From Prochlorococcus sp. AG-449-J16 (GTDB taxonomy: Bacteria > Cyanobacteriota > Cyanobacteriia > PCC-6307 > Cyanobiaceae): a DNA stretch of 64,000 bases. The notes under the pieces are model-generated. The model had not been told where the DNA came from, made no database searches, and saw only the letters and a list, made by a program, of their open reading frames with translations. Position 1 is the first letter of the stretch. Every line of letters begins with the position of its first letter. Made by a program: the position numbers and the translations under genes. This document shows positions 56,580 to 63,824 of this stretch, one piece after another. The DNA lies in contig QCQK01000003.1 in NCBI GenBank assembly GCA_003209565.1, positions 8,656-72,655 on the forward strand, written 5' to 3'.

Positions 56580-57098
56580 CTAACTACACTCAAGACTCTC
56601 TCTTGTTGAAACGCCTGTTGTTGGATTGATCCCATCAGCAATTTCACAAAGATTTCTTTGATCTTCGCTGTCAAGAATAGCGTAAGAAAAATCTGCTCCT
56701 TCTATTTGAGCTCCTGCAAAACTGCTTCCTGATGCGATCATATTTATTAAAACAGCATTTCTAAGATCTGTTTTTTGGAAATTAACTCGATCAGAAAGAG
56801 TATCGGTCAAGTCTATGCCATTTAAGTTAGAACCTTTTAAATCAGATAGGGTTAAGGTTGTCCCATGTAAATCAACGTCACTAAAATCAGCGTCTCTCGC
56901 AACTGCTCCAGCTATAGAAGACAAATGAAGATCCTCTCCATGGAAATCAAATCCTGTAATATTGGATCTTACATAACTTGGAACTTCGTCTCCCTCGCCC
57001 TTGACAGCTACATTTGCCCCAGCAAAAACTGGAGAGGATATAACTAAGAAAGAAAAAGTTAAGCATAAAAAATATTTTAAAAACCTAAAAAATTTCAT
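56580..57098 (-). CDS. Exported pentapeptide-repeat protein
   Basis: Signal peptide (PVFA), A(D/N)LXX repeats, LC..A.G.NP.TG..TRESL.C C-terminal disulfide cap. Confidence 0.92.
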
Positions 57099-57181: not shown

Positions 57182-57655
57182 TTATTTAACACTATAAATT
57201 TTAAATCTAGGTTCTAAATTTGTTATACAATCTAGGAGTTTTTTATTATCTTTGCTATTAGTAACCTTGAATTCAGATTCAACTGAGCCGCCTTCATCTC
57301 TAATGGCTTGATTTAAAACTATGGAACCGTTTTCGTCAGATACTGATCGATGAAAAGTTCCTCTTGGTATCCTTAAAATATATCCGCAAGATTCTAATCT
57401 AACTTTGTAAAAAGGATAATCCCATCCAAAATTAACAAGGAAGAATGTTCTTCCCCCAGAAATAGCCAATAGATTATCTTCTTGATTGTGATGTATGTAA
57501 AATTGCCAGTTATTTAATTCTTCATCATTTGGCGGACTAATTGCAGGACCGCTGTGAATCACTAAATCCCTAAAATTTGAATTGTTAATACTAATATCAA
57601 AAAATCTGACATCTTTTGTATCTCGAAATTTTTCATAGCTTATCAATTCAAACAT
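57182..57655 (-). CDS. Cupin-fold (RmlC-like) protein, function unknown
   Basis: Likely start MFELISY at 57655; cupin motif 1 YIHHNQEDNL and motif 2 IPRGTFHRS. Confidence 0.72.
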   Translation of the reverse strand: MFELISYEKFRDTKDVRFFDISINNSNFRDLVIHSGPAISPPNDEELNNWQFYIHHNQEDNLLAISGGRTFFLVNFGWDYPFYKVRLESCGYILRIPRGTFHRSVSDENGSIVLNQAIRDEGGSVESEFKVTNSKDNKKLLDCITNLEPRFKIYSVK

Positions 57656-57829
57656 TTTTGATTTGTTTGATTTGATAATTGGAATTTCTAAACTTGAGTT
57701 CAATTTTCTCCGAAGATTAAACAAATGAAAACAGATAAATTCCTTTAAGAACGTATCAATTAACACTAAAAAAGAAACATATTTTTTTTATTTTTTTTTT
57801 CTTAATTTAAGAGATTATAAATTTAGAGT

Positions 57830-58687
57830 TTATTTGATTTCAAGAGGTTTAATTTCCCAGGATAAAGTATTTTCTAAATTATTTTTTCCTATAAAGTTCC
57901 CAGTAATTACAGAGGTTAAATTAGATTTGGAAGATGATACCAATGTTAAATATCTTTCGTCTATTAATCCTTTTCCGCTTGGATCAAAACCTCTCCAACC
58001 AGCACCTGGAATATATAATTCAGCCCAAGCATGTAAATCTAACTCAGAGGGTAACGGATCTTCAAAATGATAACCACTTACAAACCTACTTGGGATACCA
58101 ATAGACCTACAAGCCTCAACCATCAGCATTGCTAAATCTCTGCATGAACCTATACGTTCTCTAAGTGTCCTGCTAGCCGGCCATGCTGGGCCTATATGCC
58201 TTTTGGTATATTTAACCCGATCTTGAATAATCTCAATTAATTGGTAGGTAAATGATAATGCGTTATTAATGCTTCCTGCTAAAGCTTCTTGGGCGAGTTC
58301 TACGGCAGAGGGATCGTGTTGTCCATTTGGCATCCATCCCTCCAATGCTCCCTGTAAATCTCTATTTATAATGCTTCTACAAAAAGGTAATGTTAAATCT
58401 CTATTTTTAACTACATCAATAATGTTTGGATGTTTTGTAGTTTCAACTTCGCTGATTGATTCAATAATTAAATTATCTGTTAATCCATTGAATCTGATTC
58501 TGTTAATCTCTTCTCCGCTGGCAGCAAGTAATGGATAAAGAATTTCTGGTTCTGGGCTTATTTTTAATTCAAAATTCTTGAGTTTTTGGAAGCCATTTGA
58601 CCTTGGCTTTATACATAATCTATGCTCGCCTAATTGGACAGGCTCTTCGTATTTATATTCAAGTTTGTGAATGTATTTAATTCTCAT
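57830..58687 (-). CDS. Transglutaminase-like protein with N-terminal beta-sandwich
   Basis: H...Y.Y..PV N-terminal domain; Cys-His-Asp triad GSCRD / LHAWAE / GFDPS; SRFVSGY. Confidence 0.92.
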   Translation of the reverse strand: MRIKYIHKLEYKYEEPVQLGEHRLCIKPRSNGFQKLKNFELKISPEPEILYPLLAASGEEINRIRFNGLTDNLIIESISEVETTKHPNIIDVVKNRDLTLPFCRSIINRDLQGALEGWMPNGQHDPSAVELAQEALAGSINNALSFTYQLIEIIQDRVKYTKRHIGPAWPASRTLRERIGSCRDLAMLMVEACRSIGIPSRFVSGYHFEDPLPSELDLHAWAELYIPGAGWRGFDPSGKGLIDERYLTLVSSSKSNLTSVITGNFIGKNNLENTLSWEIKPLEIK

Positions 58688-58698
58688 TAATAAGCTTA

Positions 58699-59640
58699 TT
58701 AATTAATAAAATATTTTTCTTGAATGAGATCATTTAATTTATTTAAATCCATTTGCAATGAATCTATAGCCTCATGTAAACCATCATTAATTATATCTTC
58801 AATTCTGATATAACTCCACTTTGCTTTAAGCAAACCTCGCATGCATTCTAATTCTGATGGATTTTCAATAGATGGAGAGGTATCTATCGCTTTAAGTGTA
58901 TTACTTATCCCATCAAGACAGTACCTTACTGATCTCGGAAAAATTGGATCAAGTAAAAGAAATCTCGCAACTGAATTAGGCTTTATAGAATTCTGCACTG
59001 CTTTCCTAAACATTTGATAAGCTCCAGCTGAACGTAAAAGTGCAATCCATTGCAGCTCATCAAGAACCCCTCCAAGTTCATCTAAGCTAGGTAAAAGTAA
59101 ATAATATTTAACATCTAAAATTCTGGATGTTTTGTCAGCTCTCTCGATTAATCTTCCAAGAATGCTAAATCTCCAAGCAAGATCTTTGCTTAGAGTTGCA
59201 TCTGTAATTCCATAAAAAAGCTGACATTCCCTCCTTATTTCACTTAGTTGTTCTTGCCTTGGTTTATTCCATATTGACTCTCCTTCTTGCATATTCCAAT
59301 ATAAAACATTAATTTGTTCCCACATTTCTGTGGTCATAACATCTCTGATTTGTCGTGCATTTTCTCTTGCCATTTGAATGCAAGAAATTATGCTGTTTGG
59401 GTTTAAACGATCTCTTATTAAAAAATTAATAACATCATCAGGTTTTTTCTCTGGAAATCTTTTATCAAATGATTCTCTGTCACTTGAAGCATCAATTAAC
59501 GGAAGCCAAGGTTCTGCGCTTCCTGGCGGACAATCTAATGACATTGCTTCACTTACTTCCACGAAGCGAGATATGTTTTCTGCACGTTCTAAATAACGAT
59601 TTATCCAATAAAGAGATTCTGCTACACGACTTAAAAGCAT
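58699..59640 (-). CDS. Alpha-E domain protein (DUF403)
   Basis: MLLSRVAESLYWINRYLERAEN start at 59640, ARENAR, GRLIERAD, FPRS. Confidence 0.92.
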   Translation of the reverse strand: MLLSRVAESLYWINRYLERAENISRFVEVSEAMSLDCPPGSAEPWLPLIDASSDRESFDKRFPEKKPDDVINFLIRDRLNPNSIISCIQMARENARQIRDVMTTEMWEQINVLYWNMQEGESIWNKPRQEQLSEIRRECQLFYGITDATLSKDLAWRFSILGRLIERADKTSRILDVKYYLLLPSLDELGGVLDELQWIALLRSAGAYQMFRKAVQNSIKPNSVARFLLLDPIFPRSVRYCLDGISNTLKAIDTSPSIENPSELECMRGLLKAKWSYIRIEDIINDGLHEAIDSLQMDLNKLNDLIQEKYFIN

Positions 59641-59641
59641 A

Positions 59642-61084
59642 TTATTTACCAACAACCCATGTATCTTTGCATCCTCCACCTTGAGAAGAATTGACGACTA
59701 ATGATCCTTTTTTTAATGCTACCCTCGTAAGCCCACCAGGGCTTACCCATGAATCTTTCCCTCTCAAGATATATGGTCTTAAATCAACATGACAAGGAAA
59801 AAGTTCTCCATCACATAACGATGGCACAGTAGATAATTCTAAAGTTGGTTGTGCTATGAAATTTCTAGGATTTTTTTTAATTTTATTAGCGAATTCTTCT
59901 ATCTCACTTGTTGTTGAGTGAGGTCCAATTAACATTCCATAACCCCCAGCTTCTGCTACAGACTTAACGACAAGTTTGGGTAAATTTTCTAAGACATAAT
60001 CTCGATCCTTTTGATAATGACAAATATAAGTTTCTACATTATTAATAATAATTTCTTCATCAAGATAATACTTAATCATTTTTGGAACAAATGAATAAAT
60101 CATTTTGTCATCTGCTATTCCAGTCCCAGGTGCATTTGCTAAAGCAACATGACCTGCCTTGAAAACATCTAATAATCCGCTAACACCAAGGCAGGAATCT
60201 TTTCTGAAATTAAGAGGATCCAAGAAATCATCATCAATTCGTCTGTAAATTACATCTACTCTTTTTAATCCAGAGGTAGTTTTTAAATATACATAATCGT
60301 CATTACAAACTAAGTCATGACCCTGAACTAGTTGGATGCCCATTTCTTGAGCTAAATAACTATGTTCAAAATAAGCACTATTAAAAATTCCTGGAGTTAG
60401 TAGAACTATCTTGGGAGTGTCTGTCCAAACAGCAAGTTCTTGAAGTGTTTTTAAAAGATATGATGGATACTCATCAATTGGTTTTACTATTCTTCCAGAG
60501 AAAAGATTAGGGAAAATATTTTTCATAACTAATCTATTTTCTAAAAAGTAAGCAACCCCAGAAGGGCACCTTAAATTATCTTCTAAAACATGCCAATCTC
60601 CATTTCTGTCTCTTATTAAATCAAGTCCTGAAATTTGACACCATTTATTTAGAGGAGGTTTAAAACCTATCATCTGAGGTCTCCAACCTTCTGAACTCTC
60701 TATTAATTCTCTTGGAATTATTCCATCATTAATTATTTTTTGAGAATTATAAATATCATCTAGGAATAAATCAATTGCCTCAAGCCTTTGTTTTAGACCT
60801 TTTTCTAAGGTTACCCAATCATCTTTACTAATTATTCTAGGAAGTGGATCAAAAGGTAATATTCTTTCAGTACCTTTTAAACCAGTATCGTTTAATCTAA
60901 AAGTTGCACCATGTCTTAATAATAATTTTTTTGCGGCAGAGTGATTCCTGTTTAGTTCTTCAAGACCCATATTATCCAAAGAGGAAAGAAGTGGAATCAA
61001 TATTTCTCTAGCAGAATTAACATTATCCTTAAAGTATTCATCAAAACTATTTTTAGGCTGATAACTTGAAAACATATATTTCAT
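59642..61084 (-). CDS. Circularly permuted type 2 ATP-grasp ligase
   Basis: PFDPLPR, GLDLIRD, VLEDNLRCPSGV, YFEH, VIYRRIDD, G.ADDK, GGYGML, VDLRP, VVNSSQGGG.KDTWV. Confidence 0.93.
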   Translation of the reverse strand: MKYMFSSYQPKNSFDEYFKDNVNSAREILIPLLSSLDNMGLEELNRNHSAAKKLLLRHGATFRLNDTGLKGTERILPFDPLPRIISKDDWVTLEKGLKQRLEAIDLFLDDIYNSQKIINDGIIPRELIESSEGWRPQMIGFKPPLNKWCQISGLDLIRDRNGDWHVLEDNLRCPSGVAYFLENRLVMKNIFPNLFSGRIVKPIDEYPSYLLKTLQELAVWTDTPKIVLLTPGIFNSAYFEHSYLAQEMGIQLVQGHDLVCNDDYVYLKTTSGLKRVDVIYRRIDDDFLDPLNFRKDSCLGVSGLLDVFKAGHVALANAPGTGIADDKMIYSFVPKMIKYYLDEEIIINNVETYICHYQKDRDYVLENLPKLVVKSVAEAGGYGMLIGPHSTTSEIEEFANKIKKNPRNFIAQPTLELSTVPSLCDGELFPCHVDLRPYILRGKDSWVSPGGLTRVALKKGSLVVNSSQGGGCKDTWVVGK

Positions 61085-61122
61085 AATTTAGTAATTTTTA
61101 CTTTAGCTTCAAATCTATATTC

Positions 61123-61136
61123 GTATTTATGGATAC
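61123..61136. promoter_or_regulatory. Putative NtcA binding site
   Basis: Exact GTA-N8-TAC (GTAtttatggaTAC) 38 nt upstream of the ATP-grasp start; on the minus strand TAAAAA(T) begins 22 nt downstream. Confidence 0.6.
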
Positions 61137-61213
61137 CAAAAATAATATCTCTTAACTCGATCTATTTAATTATTTGGATCATTGAAGTATATTTCTTAAA
61201 AATCTAAAAAAGT

Positions 61214-61450
61214 ATGAATTCTGGCAATTGGCAATTTGTGTTTTTTAGATATTTCGCAAGCTTTCTTTTTATACTGTCTCACAGTTTGCTGGTTCTTGAT
61301 CATCTACCAGTAGGGGCGGCACTTCACGGCCTTGGAGAAGTTTTTATTGCGCCTTGGGCTTTTAGAGAAAGAGCATGGGATCTTGTGGTTATTGCAGTTT
61401 TATTTTTCTTTTTCGATATCTGGGGACTTATAAACACTCCTTGGAATTAA
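61214..61450 (+). CDS. Small conserved hypothetical membrane protein
   Basis: 78 aa, 2-3 hydrophobic segments, Trp/His-containing (LHGLGE, APWA, AWDL). Confidence 0.7.
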   Translation: MNSGNWQFVFFRYFASFLFILSHSLLVLDHLPVGAALHGLGEVFIAPWAFRERAWDLVVIAVLFFFFDIWGLINTPWN

Positions 61451-61481: not shown

Positions 61482-61715
61482 ATGATATTAAAAATTAAGT
61501 CTTATTTTTATCAAATTTATAAAATAATTTTACTTTTATTACTTACGAATATTTCCATTTTGTATGCACATAATTTATTTAATGGTGGTTGCAAAACACA
61601 TTGTGGGCAAAAATTTAAAGTAATAAGTAATAAAAACAAATTAAAAAATATTGATGATCAAATAAATATTGAGAGTAAGAATTCTTGTTTAAACAAATCA
61701 CTATGTAGAGGTTAA
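61482..61715 (+). CDS. Small exported Cys/His-rich hypothetical protein
   Basis: Signal-like N-terminus ending ILYA-H; CKTHC and CLNKSLC. Confidence 0.55.
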   Translation: MILKIKSYFYQIYKIILLLLLTNISILYAHNLFNGGCKTHCGQKFKVISNKNKLKNIDDQINIESKNSCLNKSLCRG

Positions 61716-62750: not shown

Positions 62751-63824
62751 TTACTTAAATCCCTTTGAAAAAAGGTTAGTACGAACTTTAAATTTCCATA
62801 CATTTACAACACCTTTTGCATTGACTGCTGCAAGTGCACAATCATCAGGTCTCCATGATATTGCTCCTACTAAATCTCCTGCGAATGCAGCCCCAACGGG
62901 ATCTCCATTGCCATCATTTTTTAGGAAACTTGCGACAACAGAACCATCCCTAGATCCTGAGGCTACAAGCATACCTTTATTTGAAAAGGCTAAGCTCGAA
63001 ATAGGTTCTGTATGGTGACATAGCTCTCCTGGCATAGTGCCCTCCGGACCATTGCCTATAAAGCTCCATACTGTAATTCTTTCACTGCCGCTAGTTGCTA
63101 ATAATTTTCCGCTGTCATCAAAAGAAAGGTGACTTGGTTTTCCAGGGTATCCAGTCATTTCGGCATCCATTCCTGTTGATCTTCTCCAAAAATGAACTGA
63201 ATTGTCTTGACTCCCACAGGCGACTATATCTCCATCAGGGCTTAATTCCATAGAGACCAATGATCCTTGCCACTCCAGCTTTTGATTCGTTTTATTATTA
63301 ACAATGTCAAAGAATGTCACTCTGCCGTAGCATGCAGTTGCGAGCTCATTTTTATTTGACCATGTTATTGCACTTACTGTGCTTGGATGGTCTTCTGAGA
63401 TCCATTTCTCTTCTCCAATTTCATTAAAAACATATACTTTTTTTGAGGAAGCTATCGCTAGAAATAAACCGTCATTAGACCACTTGAGGTGTTCTACCCA
63501 ACCTTTGCCAAGATCAAGTGTTTTAATAACTTTACCTTCATGGCAATTACAAATTTGAACATTTCCATCTTGACCTGATGTTGCAAAAATTTCACCCTCT
63601 GGATGAATTGCCATTTCTAGTAGACCACCAGAGTGAGTATTTTCTTTTTTCCAAATAATTTTTCCAGTATCTCCTTCGAATGCAAAAATACCACCCGCAA
63701 CGTCGCCAACAATAAATTGTTTCCCTTTAAGAGCCCAGCCACATGCTATGGCATAATCGCTAACTTCAGCAGTCCATCCTTCATGGAACATGCCTCTTGG
63801 GCTAAATGGTTCTATATCAGGCAT
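62751..63824 (-). CDS. WD40 repeat protein
   Basis: Repeated ...S.DG...A.G..D..V..W blades (ATSGQDGNV, ACGSQDNSVHFW, ASGSRDGSV). Confidence 0.9.
   Translation of the reverse strand: MPDIEPFSPRGMFHEGWTAEVSDYAIACGWALKGKQFIVGDVAGGIFAFEGDTGKIIWKKENTHSGGLLEMAIHPEGEIFATSGQDGNVQICNCHEGKVIKTLDLGKGWVEHLKWSNDGLFLAIASSKKVYVFNEIGEEKWISEDHPSTVSAITWSNKNELATACYGRVTFFDIVNNKTNQKLEWQGSLVSMELSPDGDIVACGSQDNSVHFWRRSTGMDAEMTGYPGKPSHLSFDDSGKLLATSGSERITVWSFIGNGPEGTMPGELCHHTEPISSLAFSNKGMLVASGSRDGSVVASFLKNDGNGDPVGAAFAGDLVGAISWRPDDCALAAVNAKGVVNVWKFKVRTNLFSKGFK

Follow-up and report, generated by a model that had tools for sequence, protein, structure and literature searches.

A described system close to the locus analyzed here is the four-gene Anbu operon found in Pseudomonas, Yersinia, Hyphomicrobium and many cyanobacteria, which comprises COG2308, COG2307, COG1305 and COG3484, the last being Anbu (Valas & Bourne 2008; Iyer et al. 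2009; Fuchs 2017; Piasecka 2018). The module was predicted in 2008-2009 and is widespread in bacteria, and COG2308 also occurs in genomes without Anbu (Valas & Bourne 2008). In Yersinia, the ligase orthologue frees orthophosphate from ATP, and pull-downs with Anbu as bait gave no stable complexes, in a design that could not show ligase/Alpha-E binding (Piasecka 2018). Homologous operons in Pseudomonas putida and Burkholderia cenocepacia are induced by nitrogen limitation or depend on NtrC. Rv2411c-Rv2409c and Rv2567 of Mycobacterium tuberculosis, which we take to belong to the same families in an actinobacterial setting, presumably include a natural fusion of ligase and Alpha-E (Rv2567); Rv2411c and Rv2567 have been named as ATP-binding candidate enzymes and, when tested, do not make GABA-trehalose. 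A literature search turned up no function for the three-gene set and no characterisation of its product, as the preliminary description of this DNA had stated, and the orthologues PMM1038-1040 were not found mentioned in the running text of papers. Two functional leads, a preprint on uS11 isoaspartate and a HEPN paper, proved false, the text matches being to 'alpha-E119' and 'DUF4037'.

Other enzyme systems offer mechanistic comparisons. In E. coli GspSA, an ATP-grasp ligase links an amine to the carboxylate of a peptide, and the Cys-based amidase paired with it undoes that bond; eukaryotic glutathione synthetases are circularly permuted ATP-grasps. The likeness to GspSA is one of proposed mechanism: the ligase studied here has no detectable sequence similarity to GspSA or glutathione synthetase and is not a member of either family, the hydrolase has a transglutaminase rather than a CHAP fold, and Alpha-E is present as a third protein. 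The Pup-proteasome system (PafA/Dop) is a conceptual analogy only, combining ATP-dependent amide ligation with a proteasome-family protease; PafA has a glutamine-synthetase-like fold, and the present locus differs in having neither a tag gene nor a proteasome homologue.

The window, a 64-kb stretch of DNA from a Prochlorococcus of high-light clade II (AS9601-like), carries three co-oriented minus-strand genes in the order ligase, Alpha-E, transglutaminase, as read from its open reading frames (Table 1). They are adjacent and ordered as the COG2308-COG2307-COG1305 system requires. One nucleotide separates ligase from Alpha-E (ggt-aaa-TAA-t-ATG) and 11 nt separate Alpha-E from the transglutaminase-like gene (TAA + 11 nt + ATG), and this close spacing of stop and start codons is consistent with coupled translation. 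PMM1038-PMM1039-PMM1040 of MED4 are direct orthologues, as are the AS9601 genes (e.g. ABM70428.1), with ligases about 91% identical; Rockhopper called the MED4 genes as one operon (Read et al. 2017), and MED4 shares the gene order, spacing, NtcA-type box and candidate -10 element found here. The MED4 ligase has one extra N-terminal codon, which is no difference of substance. Gene order was identical at all 28 picocyanobacterial loci examined, which strongly supports the trio as one conserved, co-oriented unit. The arrangement, the family assignments and the intact catalytic motifs given in the preliminary description were all confirmed. Judged by its protein families, the trio is the known COG2308/COG2307/COG1305 'Anbu operon' module, widespread in bacteria and here without Anbu; it has already been described bioinformatically, and what this window holds is an ordinary, previously annotated representative of a known family. 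Our additions are the conservation of the NtcA-type box, its match to the MED4 start, the Alpha-E duplication, the domain fusions and the urease association.

Table 1 Features of the locus, with positions in the 64-kb window.
Feature	Position	Strand	Remarks
Transglutaminase-fold (papain-like) Cys-His-Asp enzyme, 285 aa, COG1305, PMM1040 orthologue	57830..58687	-	PF08379 + PF01841
Alpha-E, 313 aa from ATG, COG2307, PMM1039 orthologue	58699..59640	-	PF04168, E 6e-96
Circularly permuted ATP-grasp ligase, 480 aa, COG2308, PMM1038 orthologue	59642..61084	-	PF14403, E 4e-161
Predicted transcription start, leaderless or nearly leaderless mRNA	61085..61088	-	By homology to MED4
Candidate -10 element TAAAAA	61095..61100	-	22 nt after box; imperfect TAN3T match, lacking the final T
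NtcA-type box GTATCCATAAATAC (GTA-N8-TAC, palindromic consensus)	61123..61136	-	Starts 52 nt upstream of ligase ATG

The ligase matched PF14403 (CP_ATPgrasp_2) at 536 bits against a cut-off of 32, with no Pfam match beyond two CP_ATPgrasp families at E <= 0.01, and no NCBIfam model matched any of the three proteins. Profile searching of the PDB returned 3n6x alone (E 1e-148, residues 13-478), with no sequence-level link to glutathione or Gsp synthetases. That entry, Mfla_0391 of Methylobacillus flagellatus, is a full-length homologue from structural genomics, and its name 'putative glutathionylspermidine synthase' is an annotation, not a finding. The motifs LEDNLRCPSG, VIYRRIDDDF and NSSQGGGCKD (EDN..PSG, YRR and SQGGG) all align to 3n6x and are invariant in 12 cyanobacterial sequences. 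Ligase identity was 91-99% within the genus, 63-75% within the family and 53-59% in other cyanobacteria. A structure model from 12 cyanobacterial sequences was compared with Foldseek, which placed 3n6x first (E 5e-37), then glutathione and homoglutathione synthetases (E 3e-9 to 1e-7), the eukaryotic glutathione synthetases being the apparent top neighbours after 3n6x, and then GspS, YjfC and YgiC. Matches to 8fbz, 3kal, 2hgs and 2io8 had probability 1.0 and E 3e-9 to 1e-4, for a query model with a pLDDT of only 61 that served for a coarse neighbour list alone. The transglutaminase-like protein combines Bact_transglu_N (PF08379, E 4e-15) with Transglut_core (PF01841, E 1e-19); its triad C182, H219 and D235 is invariant in eight cyanobacterial orthologues, and its PDB matches were 3isr (E 3e-10) and TgpA 6g49 (E 2e-4).

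Alpha-E matched PF04168 at 322 bits and consists of two tandem helical-bundle halves of ~150 aa, each with one LERA(E/D) motif (RYLERAEN and RLIERADK). The halves align to each other with an HHalign probability of 99.5% (E 2e-23), and Alpha-E is, on this sequence comparison, an internal duplication. Among 105 diverse Alpha-E sequences, E18-R19 and E166-R167 were at least 90% conserved; W12, R19, R25 and E166 were invariant, along with many near-invariant Arg residues. An AlphaFold2 (AF2) model was all-helical with a pLDDT of 94.9, and Foldseek found nothing for it in the PDB at E <= 0.001. A structure search independent of Foldseek returned generic helical bundles only, the best at Z 9.5 over half of the model, short of the stated noise threshold for helical proteins, and a sequence search of the PDB gave chance matches to ribosomal protein L29 only. 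An alternative GTG-started reading of 326 aa overlaps the ligase gene and is probably unused, because alignments to Pfam and to homologues begin at residue 2 of the ATG-started protein. In other organisms, natural fusions join ATP-grasp to Alpha-E, Alpha-E to transglutaminase, or all three domains; the first type accounted for 15 of the 21 long proteins listed, including one cluster with 26 members. Because such fusions exist, the three proteins probably work together. The C-terminus of Alpha-E is unconserved and its conserved residues form internal Arg/Glu/Trp/His clusters, a pattern that, together with the fusions, fits a putative subunit rather than a tag acceptor.

Absence of Anbu was assessed genome-wide. 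No PF00227 match was present in the window's own assembly (1.32 Mb, 52 contigs, 81% complete) or in two sets of 24 and five same-genus genomes, and an Anbu protein from the same family used as query found none in 61 same-genus genomes, of which 22 are 90% complete or more. The PF00227 search was able to detect Anbu, as is shown by its matches in 21 of 100 genomes of the window's own family and, beyond that family, in 13 of the 16 cyanobacterial families sampled. Outside picocyanobacteria, Anbu and ligase co-occurred exactly, in the same 13 of the 16 families sampled. Among the 100 near-complete family genomes, 79 carried the ligase and 58 of these had no Anbu. The description of the locus as Anbu-less is upheld; its reading as a special 'minimal version' is not supported as stated, for lacking Anbu does not set this genome apart: among marine picocyanobacteria the trio without Anbu is the commoner condition, the usual partner having been lost in most of them. 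A downstream gene of 157 aa was rejected as an Anbu replacement, its orthologue being present in Anbu-bearing genomes as well. The trio itself is dispensable, because about a fifth of the family and one complete same-genus genome have lost it, with no obvious replacement.

Upstream of the ligase gene, an NtcA-type box occurred at a fixed distance in 33 of 33 picocyanobacterial loci. It had the same position in all 12 close relatives, took the form GTAGTTTTAAATAC in five more divergent same-genus genomes, and was also present in four genomes of a second genus with LLI-sized genomes, the GTA-N8-TAC form being common to that genus and every HL genome; 14 Synechococcus/Cyanobium-type loci had a five-of-six version, GTAGCAxxxxxxAC (GTAGCA-N6-AC), at -54 to -60. 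The N8 core is TCCATAAA here and GTTTTAAA in the MED4-sized genome. GTAN8TAC occurred five times in the 64-kb window against 6.3 expected, only one of these matches (61123..61136) occupying a promoter position; because the count is at chance level, the argument for NtcA rests on position and conservation, not enrichment. A scan for consensus promoters and terminators showed nothing decisive at the operon ends. In MED4, a primary start at 981473 was mapped '1nt upstream of gene PMM1038' and appears in the tables for N-deprived cells (S9 and S11) only, being absent from those for N-replete cells (S8 and S10) (Read et al. 2017). With the promoter of the MED4-sized genome set against that of the window, the same -10 hexamer lies 7 nt upstream of this start, and the box is centered about -42.5 from it, near the -41.5 of class II NtcA-activated promoters. 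Position and conservation strongly support an NtcA-type box ahead of the trio, in a putative class II promoter with a predicted, nearly leaderless mRNA. Compared with the four-gene Anbu operon, which has the same three families in the same order, the locus shares the association with nitrogen limitation and differs in its putative regulator (NtrC/sigma-54 in proteobacteria, an NtcA box here), its predicted leader and the lack of COG3484 in the genus genomes searched. Expression of the MED4 operon is low and RNA-seq shows no strong induction: PMM1039 had a log2 fold change of -0.91 at 24 h (p 0.21, n = 2), and PMM1038 and PMM1040 fall outside the table of the top 50% by expression. Metatranscriptome contigs from four studies span the whole trio and several bridge the Alpha-E/transglutaminase junction; because contigs also run through the gap that holds the promoter and on into the divergent gene, and carry-over of DNA is possible, they indicate presence in RNA libraries only and are weak evidence for the trio.

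The reading that we consider somewhat probable is a module induced by nitrogen stress, made of a ligase with Alpha-E as its subunit and an amidase. Nitrogen scarcity, signaled by high 2-oxoglutarate, would lead NtcA to switch the operon on. The ATP-grasp enzyme, with Alpha-E as an obligate partner or subunit, would use ATP to turn a carboxylate into an acyl-phosphate that is joined to an amine, by analogy with glutathione synthetase and glutathionylspermidine synthetase, the substrate most likely being a small peptide-like or amino-acid-like metabolite. The transglutaminase-fold enzyme would attack an amide through a thioester intermediate, followed by hydrolysis or transfer. Like the two halves of glutathionylspermidine synthetase/amidase, the trio may form a ligase/amidase pair, here serving nitrogen salvage or reallocation. 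Because Prochlorococcus genomes of about 1.65 Mb have retained the three proteins after losing Anbu, the trio would be the working core, with Anbu an accessory that marine picocyanobacteria have shed. The promoter architecture would assign the trio to the response that these organisms, dominant in nitrogen-poor oceans, mount to nitrogen stress, and the search for a function narrows to small molecules, nitrogen limitation and possibly urea-related metabolism. For heterologous work, the trio is a minimal three-gene set.

Pupylation-like tagging was the first proposal made on bioinformatic grounds, as summarized elsewhere (Iyer et al. 2009): the ligase would couple amino acids or a peptide to a protein, be it Alpha-E or some other, the transglutaminase-fold enzyme would take this tag off, transfer it or cross-link it, and in other bacteria Anbu would degrade or trim what had been tagged. 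The exact co-occurrence of Anbu and ligase outside picocyanobacteria favors it, as does the annotation of some transglutaminase relatives (TgpA, 6g49) as protein-glutamine transferases. We nevertheless regard it as unlikely: conservation of the trio extends to no small ORF that resembles a tag, the locus lacks the proteasome-like partner, and the structural neighbours of the modeled ligase appear to be small-molecule ligases. The earlier suggestion that amino acids are added to Alpha-E itself found no support, given the unconserved C-terminus, the internal position of the conserved residues and the fusion of Alpha-E to enzymes in other taxa. Two small divergent ORFs (61214-61450 and 61482-61715), considered as precursor peptides, were rejected, since neither was found adjoining the trio in other genera. 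A nitrogen-rich storage peptide or polymer, raised in the preliminary description as reversible nitrogen storage, could in principle be made and broken down by a ligase and a hydrolase in one operon, and marine picocyanobacteria are not known to have cyanophycin. Storage fits poorly with a promoter of the NtcA-activated type, which is used under nitrogen scarcity, with a MED4 start listed in N-deprived cells only, and with proteobacterial homologues likewise induced by nitrogen limitation; building a store during starvation makes little sense, and co-transcription of ligase and hydrolase would imply a futile cycle, such that we hold storage to be very improbable. That the three genes are mere neighbours without a common function is scarcely credible against a gene order kept over the whole family and beyond, domain fusions in all combinations, the MED4 operon call and the joint loss of the genes.

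A further alternative is that the compound on which the trio acts can be used only with urease or the ure/urt regulon, as when an amide- or ureido-type compound is activated with ATP and then hydrolyzed. Among the 100 near-complete family genomes, ureC was present in 78 of 79 with the ligase and eight of 21 without, and the complete same-genus genome without the trio also has no ureC. By hand count, about 50 of the 78 genomes that carry both genes have ureC less than 5 kb from the ligase gene; every such pair that was read shares one strand, and in two annotated loci only a PilZ-domain gene separates the two. Abundances of DUF403/404/407 and Bact_transglu_N in marine metagenomes group with those of urea-metabolism domains (Buttigieg 2013). 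These associations are weakened by the non-independence of synteny and co-loss within one family, and by the distance of about 60-200 kb between ure genes and trio in the window's genome and all HL genomes with both positions known. The trio occurs without ureC in two other cyanobacteria, ureC occurs without the trio in three, locus tags in P. putida put the operon far from ureD, and the folds propose no chemistry, so that dependence on urease seems doubtful to us, well on the improbable side. A compound reading, also quite unlikely if a shade less so, would make the trio a route of nitrogen salvage that NtcA switches on and that is tied to urea use in the most abundant phototrophs of the ocean: the ATP-grasp/Alpha-E ligase and the transglutaminase-fold amidase would process a metabolite containing nitrogen, Alpha-E would represent a ligase subunit of a new kind, its fold unrelated to any solved structure, and the core reaction would proceed without Anbu.

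The ligase (ATP-grasp, COG2308), Alpha-E (COG2307) and transglutaminase-fold genes form an ordinary, annotated representative of a family that bioinformatic work delineated in 2008–2009. Pfam matches bore out the three-family assignment of the preliminary description, with CP_ATPgrasp_2/CP_ATPgrasp_1 for the ligase (E 4e-161), the Alpha-E domain for the second protein (E 6e-96) and Bact_transglu_N plus Transglut_core for the third; an NCBIfam search of the three proteins returned no model for any of them. The tight gene spacing that had been claimed was read again at both junctions (TAA-t-ATG between ligase and Alpha-E, then TAA, 11 nt and ATG), and the motifs that had been called intact were all found and conserved, namely EDNLRCPSG, YRRIDDDF and SSQGGGCKD in the ligase, RYLERAEN and RLIERADK in Alpha-E, and C182, H219 and D235 in the transglutaminase-fold protein. 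The window has ~31% G+C and corresponds to C3:8656-72655 in a 1.32 Mb assembly of 52 contigs (81% complete). Exact-sequence look-ups placed its proteins among Prochlorococcus proteins, and protein ABM70428.1 of AS9601 in the transglutaminase cluster.

Coordinates of the trio, its neighbours and the upstream box in the window, and of PilZ-domain genes in two Synechococcus-type loci (L052, L053)
Feature	Position	Strand	Remarks
Ligase	59642..61084	-	480 aa; ORF list
Alpha-E	58699..59640	-	313 aa counted from ATG; ORF list
Transglutaminase-fold protein	57830..58687	-	285 aa; ORF list
Cupin-like gene	57182-57766 (true start probably 57655)	-	next downstream of the trio; weak ARD match, E 0.035
Pentapeptide-repeat protein	56580-57098	-	172 aa; downstream of the cupin-like gene
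Two small ORFs	61214-61450 and 61482-61715	+	divergent from the operon
WD40 beta-propeller protein	62751-63824	-	357 aa; family unusual for so small a genome
GTA-N8-TAC NtcA-type box	61123-61136	-	read in sequence
PilZ-domain gene	L052 5432-6094	+	between ureC and the ATP-grasp gene
PilZ-domain gene	L053 5911-6486	-	between ureC and the ATP-grasp gene

When proteins were clustered at 90% identity, the ligase (480 aa) and Alpha-E (313 aa) shared one cluster. This is a database artefact that matters for homologue counts, and gene calls running across the 1-nt gap presumably link the two. Ligase matches in two genomes of the comparison sample (G004:C1:958223-959659 and G035:C16:14209-15612) each contained one in-frame TAG and may be pseudogenes or sequencing errors.

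We assessed the absence of Anbu, the proteasome-like peptidase often encoded with the trio in other bacteria, using the Proteasome model PF00227. The whole-genome search found no Anbu in the 81%-complete source assembly, nor in 24 same-genus genomes and five further complete ones, and an Anbu protein from a same-family genome had no match in 61 same-genus genomes (22 at least 90% complete). The PF00227 search was sensitive enough, since among 16 cyanobacteria from other families it recovered Anbu in 13, exactly those that carried the ligase. S. elongatus PCC 7942 has both Anbu and the trio. The picocyanobacterial family was sampled with 100 near-complete genomes; the ligase was present in 79 and Anbu in only 21, all of them ligase-bearing and all larger (2.6–3.9 Mb). 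The description of the operon as Anbu-less thus stands for the assembly and its genus, but the absence is not particular to the source genome; it is a real, lineage-wide state of small-genome picocyanobacteria. COG2308 had already been noted in genomes without Anbu (Valas & Bourne 2008). About one fifth of the family has lost the whole system, and one complete same-genus genome lacks both ligase and Alpha-E.

The order ligase, Alpha-E, transglutaminase was kept in 28/28 picocyanobacterial loci examined, which range from 31% to high G+C. Searches among longer proteins recovered natural fusions of ATP-grasp with Alpha-E (15 of the 21 long proteins listed, one cluster having 26 members) and of Alpha-E with transglutaminase, and some proteins held parts of all three families. 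In the MED4-sized genome of our sample (1,657,990 bp) the ligase lies at 981,480-982,913. Read et al. 2017 (supplements, PMC5607370) name the trio PMM1038, PMM1039 and PMM1040, for which Rockhopper called a single operon at 981474-984734 (Table S19). Metatranscriptome contigs from four studies span the entire trio stretch; since they run across the promoter gap as well, they are taken solely to show that the stretch is present in RNA libraries.

GTA-N8-TAC occurs in the window at chance frequency (5 observed vs 6.3 expected), and the box upstream of the ligase gene, in the 61085-61213 gap, is the sole occurrence in promoter position. Its start lies 52 nt upstream of the ligase ATG in 12/12 close relatives, and five more divergent same-genus genomes have a box at the equivalent place with another N8 core (GTAGTTTTAAATAC). 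A second genus with LLI-sized genomes carries it at -56/-58 in four genomes, and Synechococcus/Cyanobium-type loci have GTAGCAxxxxxxAC at -54 to -60 in 14/14 cases, with one mismatch allowed. An imperfect -10 element, TAAAAA, follows 22 nt downstream of the box. At NtcA-activated promoters the canonical box centre is at -41.5. For MED4, Read et al. (PMC5607370) place a primary start at 981473 ("1nt upstream of gene PMM1038"), which is listed under nitrogen deprivation at 12 h and 24 h (Tables S9, S11) and is absent from the nitrogen-replete Tables S8 and S10. This start makes the PMM1038 mRNA leaderless, and relative to it the box centre falls at about -42.5 in the MED4 sequence, one base off the canonical position. 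An internal start at 981600 appears in all four tables, S8–S11 (PMC5607370). Just upstream of the equivalent position, the window has a promoter-like site inside the ligase gene (TTGATT-18-GATAAT, 61000..60971, minus strand, region ~60958-61000), which may be a conserved internal promoter.

Expression levels in MED4 count against strong induction, as PMM1039 changed by log2FC -0.91 at 24 h (p 0.21, n=2) and PMM1038 and PMM1040 fell outside the upper half of expression (PMC5607370). Outside cyanobacteria, poor nitrogen sources induce the homologous operons, or these depend on NtrC/sigma-54; PP_2685 and PP_2688 of the P. putida operon reached log2 values of 4.4 and 4.0, and the B. cenocepacia operon is I35_5080-5083. 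In field communities of Microcystis, genes labelled "transglutaminase family", matched by name only, drop together with nblA, urt and glnA once ammonium is added.

The only solved homologue of the ligase is 3n6x, a structural-genomics entry. Our ligase model was poor (pLDDT 61), yet its Foldseek neighbours form a coherent series: 3n6x ranked first, followed by human, soybean and yeast glutathione/homoglutathione synthetases, with ligase Cp1B and then E. coli glutathionylspermidine synthetase/amidase, YjfC, YgiC and GshB further down. The named neighbours all join an amine to a small-peptide carboxylate, which suggests that the ligase resembles glutathione and glutathionylspermidine synthetases in fold and chemistry, while Pfam and a PDB profile search indicate that it is not a member of their families. 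Alpha-E was modeled as all-helical (pLDDT 94.9) with homologous halves (HHalign 99.5%, E 2e-23), each holding an LERA(E/D) helix; its conserved residues, mostly Arg, Glu and Trp plus a His, lie inside helices and include an Arg/Glu cluster of R15, E18, R19, R25, R92-R99, E166, R167 and R173, its C-terminus is not conserved, and sequence and fold searches of solved structures gave no informative neighbour. The transglutaminase-fold protein matched the putative Cytophaga hutchinsonii cysteine protease 3isr and had a weak match to TgpA. The trio is most likely a ligase/amidase module that would be induced by nitrogen stress, with Alpha-E acting as a subunit of the ligase. Use of the ligase for tagging is a possible reading of the same three genes, while the reversible nitrogen storage raised in the preliminary description was judged unlikely.

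Within the family, ureC was present in 78/79 ligase-bearing genomes vs 8/21 ligase-less ones, and was absent too from a complete same-genus genome without the trio. A hand count put ureC no more than 5 kb from the ligase gene in ~50 of the 78 genomes that carry both, and wherever the strands were read the two genes shared one. A PilZ-domain gene divergent from the ligase separates the two in two annotated loci, L052 and L053, where the flanking urease cluster reads ureD, ureA, ureB, ureC, then probable accessory and urtA genes. Abundances of trio-type domains in metagenomes also cluster with urea-metabolism domains (Buttigieg 2013), in agreement with the association. The trio and ure loci are ~60–200 kb apart in HL Prochlorococcus, and exceptions occur both ways at class level. 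The trio–urease link within the family is a lead rather than a finding, because it is not universal and the genomes are kin. Lineage-wide loss of Anbu with the trio kept, the NtcA-type box at a fixed position with its leaderless start, and the association with urease narrow the search, and leave the kind of system as before.

Of the small divergent ORFs, one is hydrophobic (78 aa, 95–100% conserved within the genus) and the other contains Cys and a signal-like N-terminus (77 aa, 65–90% conserved); neither was seen beside the trio outside the genus. The ORF list gives the cupin-like gene 194 aa (157 aa in relatives), and a promoter-like site of its own lies where the transglutaminase gene ends. 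The cupin-like gene's orthologue (60–67% identical) is confined to ligase-bearing genomes, usually <10 kb from the ligase gene, and is convergent to the trio in the nine Synechococcus-type loci showing one; a paralogue at 45% identity has a wider distribution. We rejected the cupin-like protein as a replacement for Anbu because the orthologue is also present in Anbu-bearing genomes. Its MED4 start is 984870, "within PMM1041", with un-normalised values under nitrogen-deprived vs nitrogen-replete conditions of 680 vs 145 at 12 h and 607 vs 285 at 24 h (Read et al., PMC5607370).
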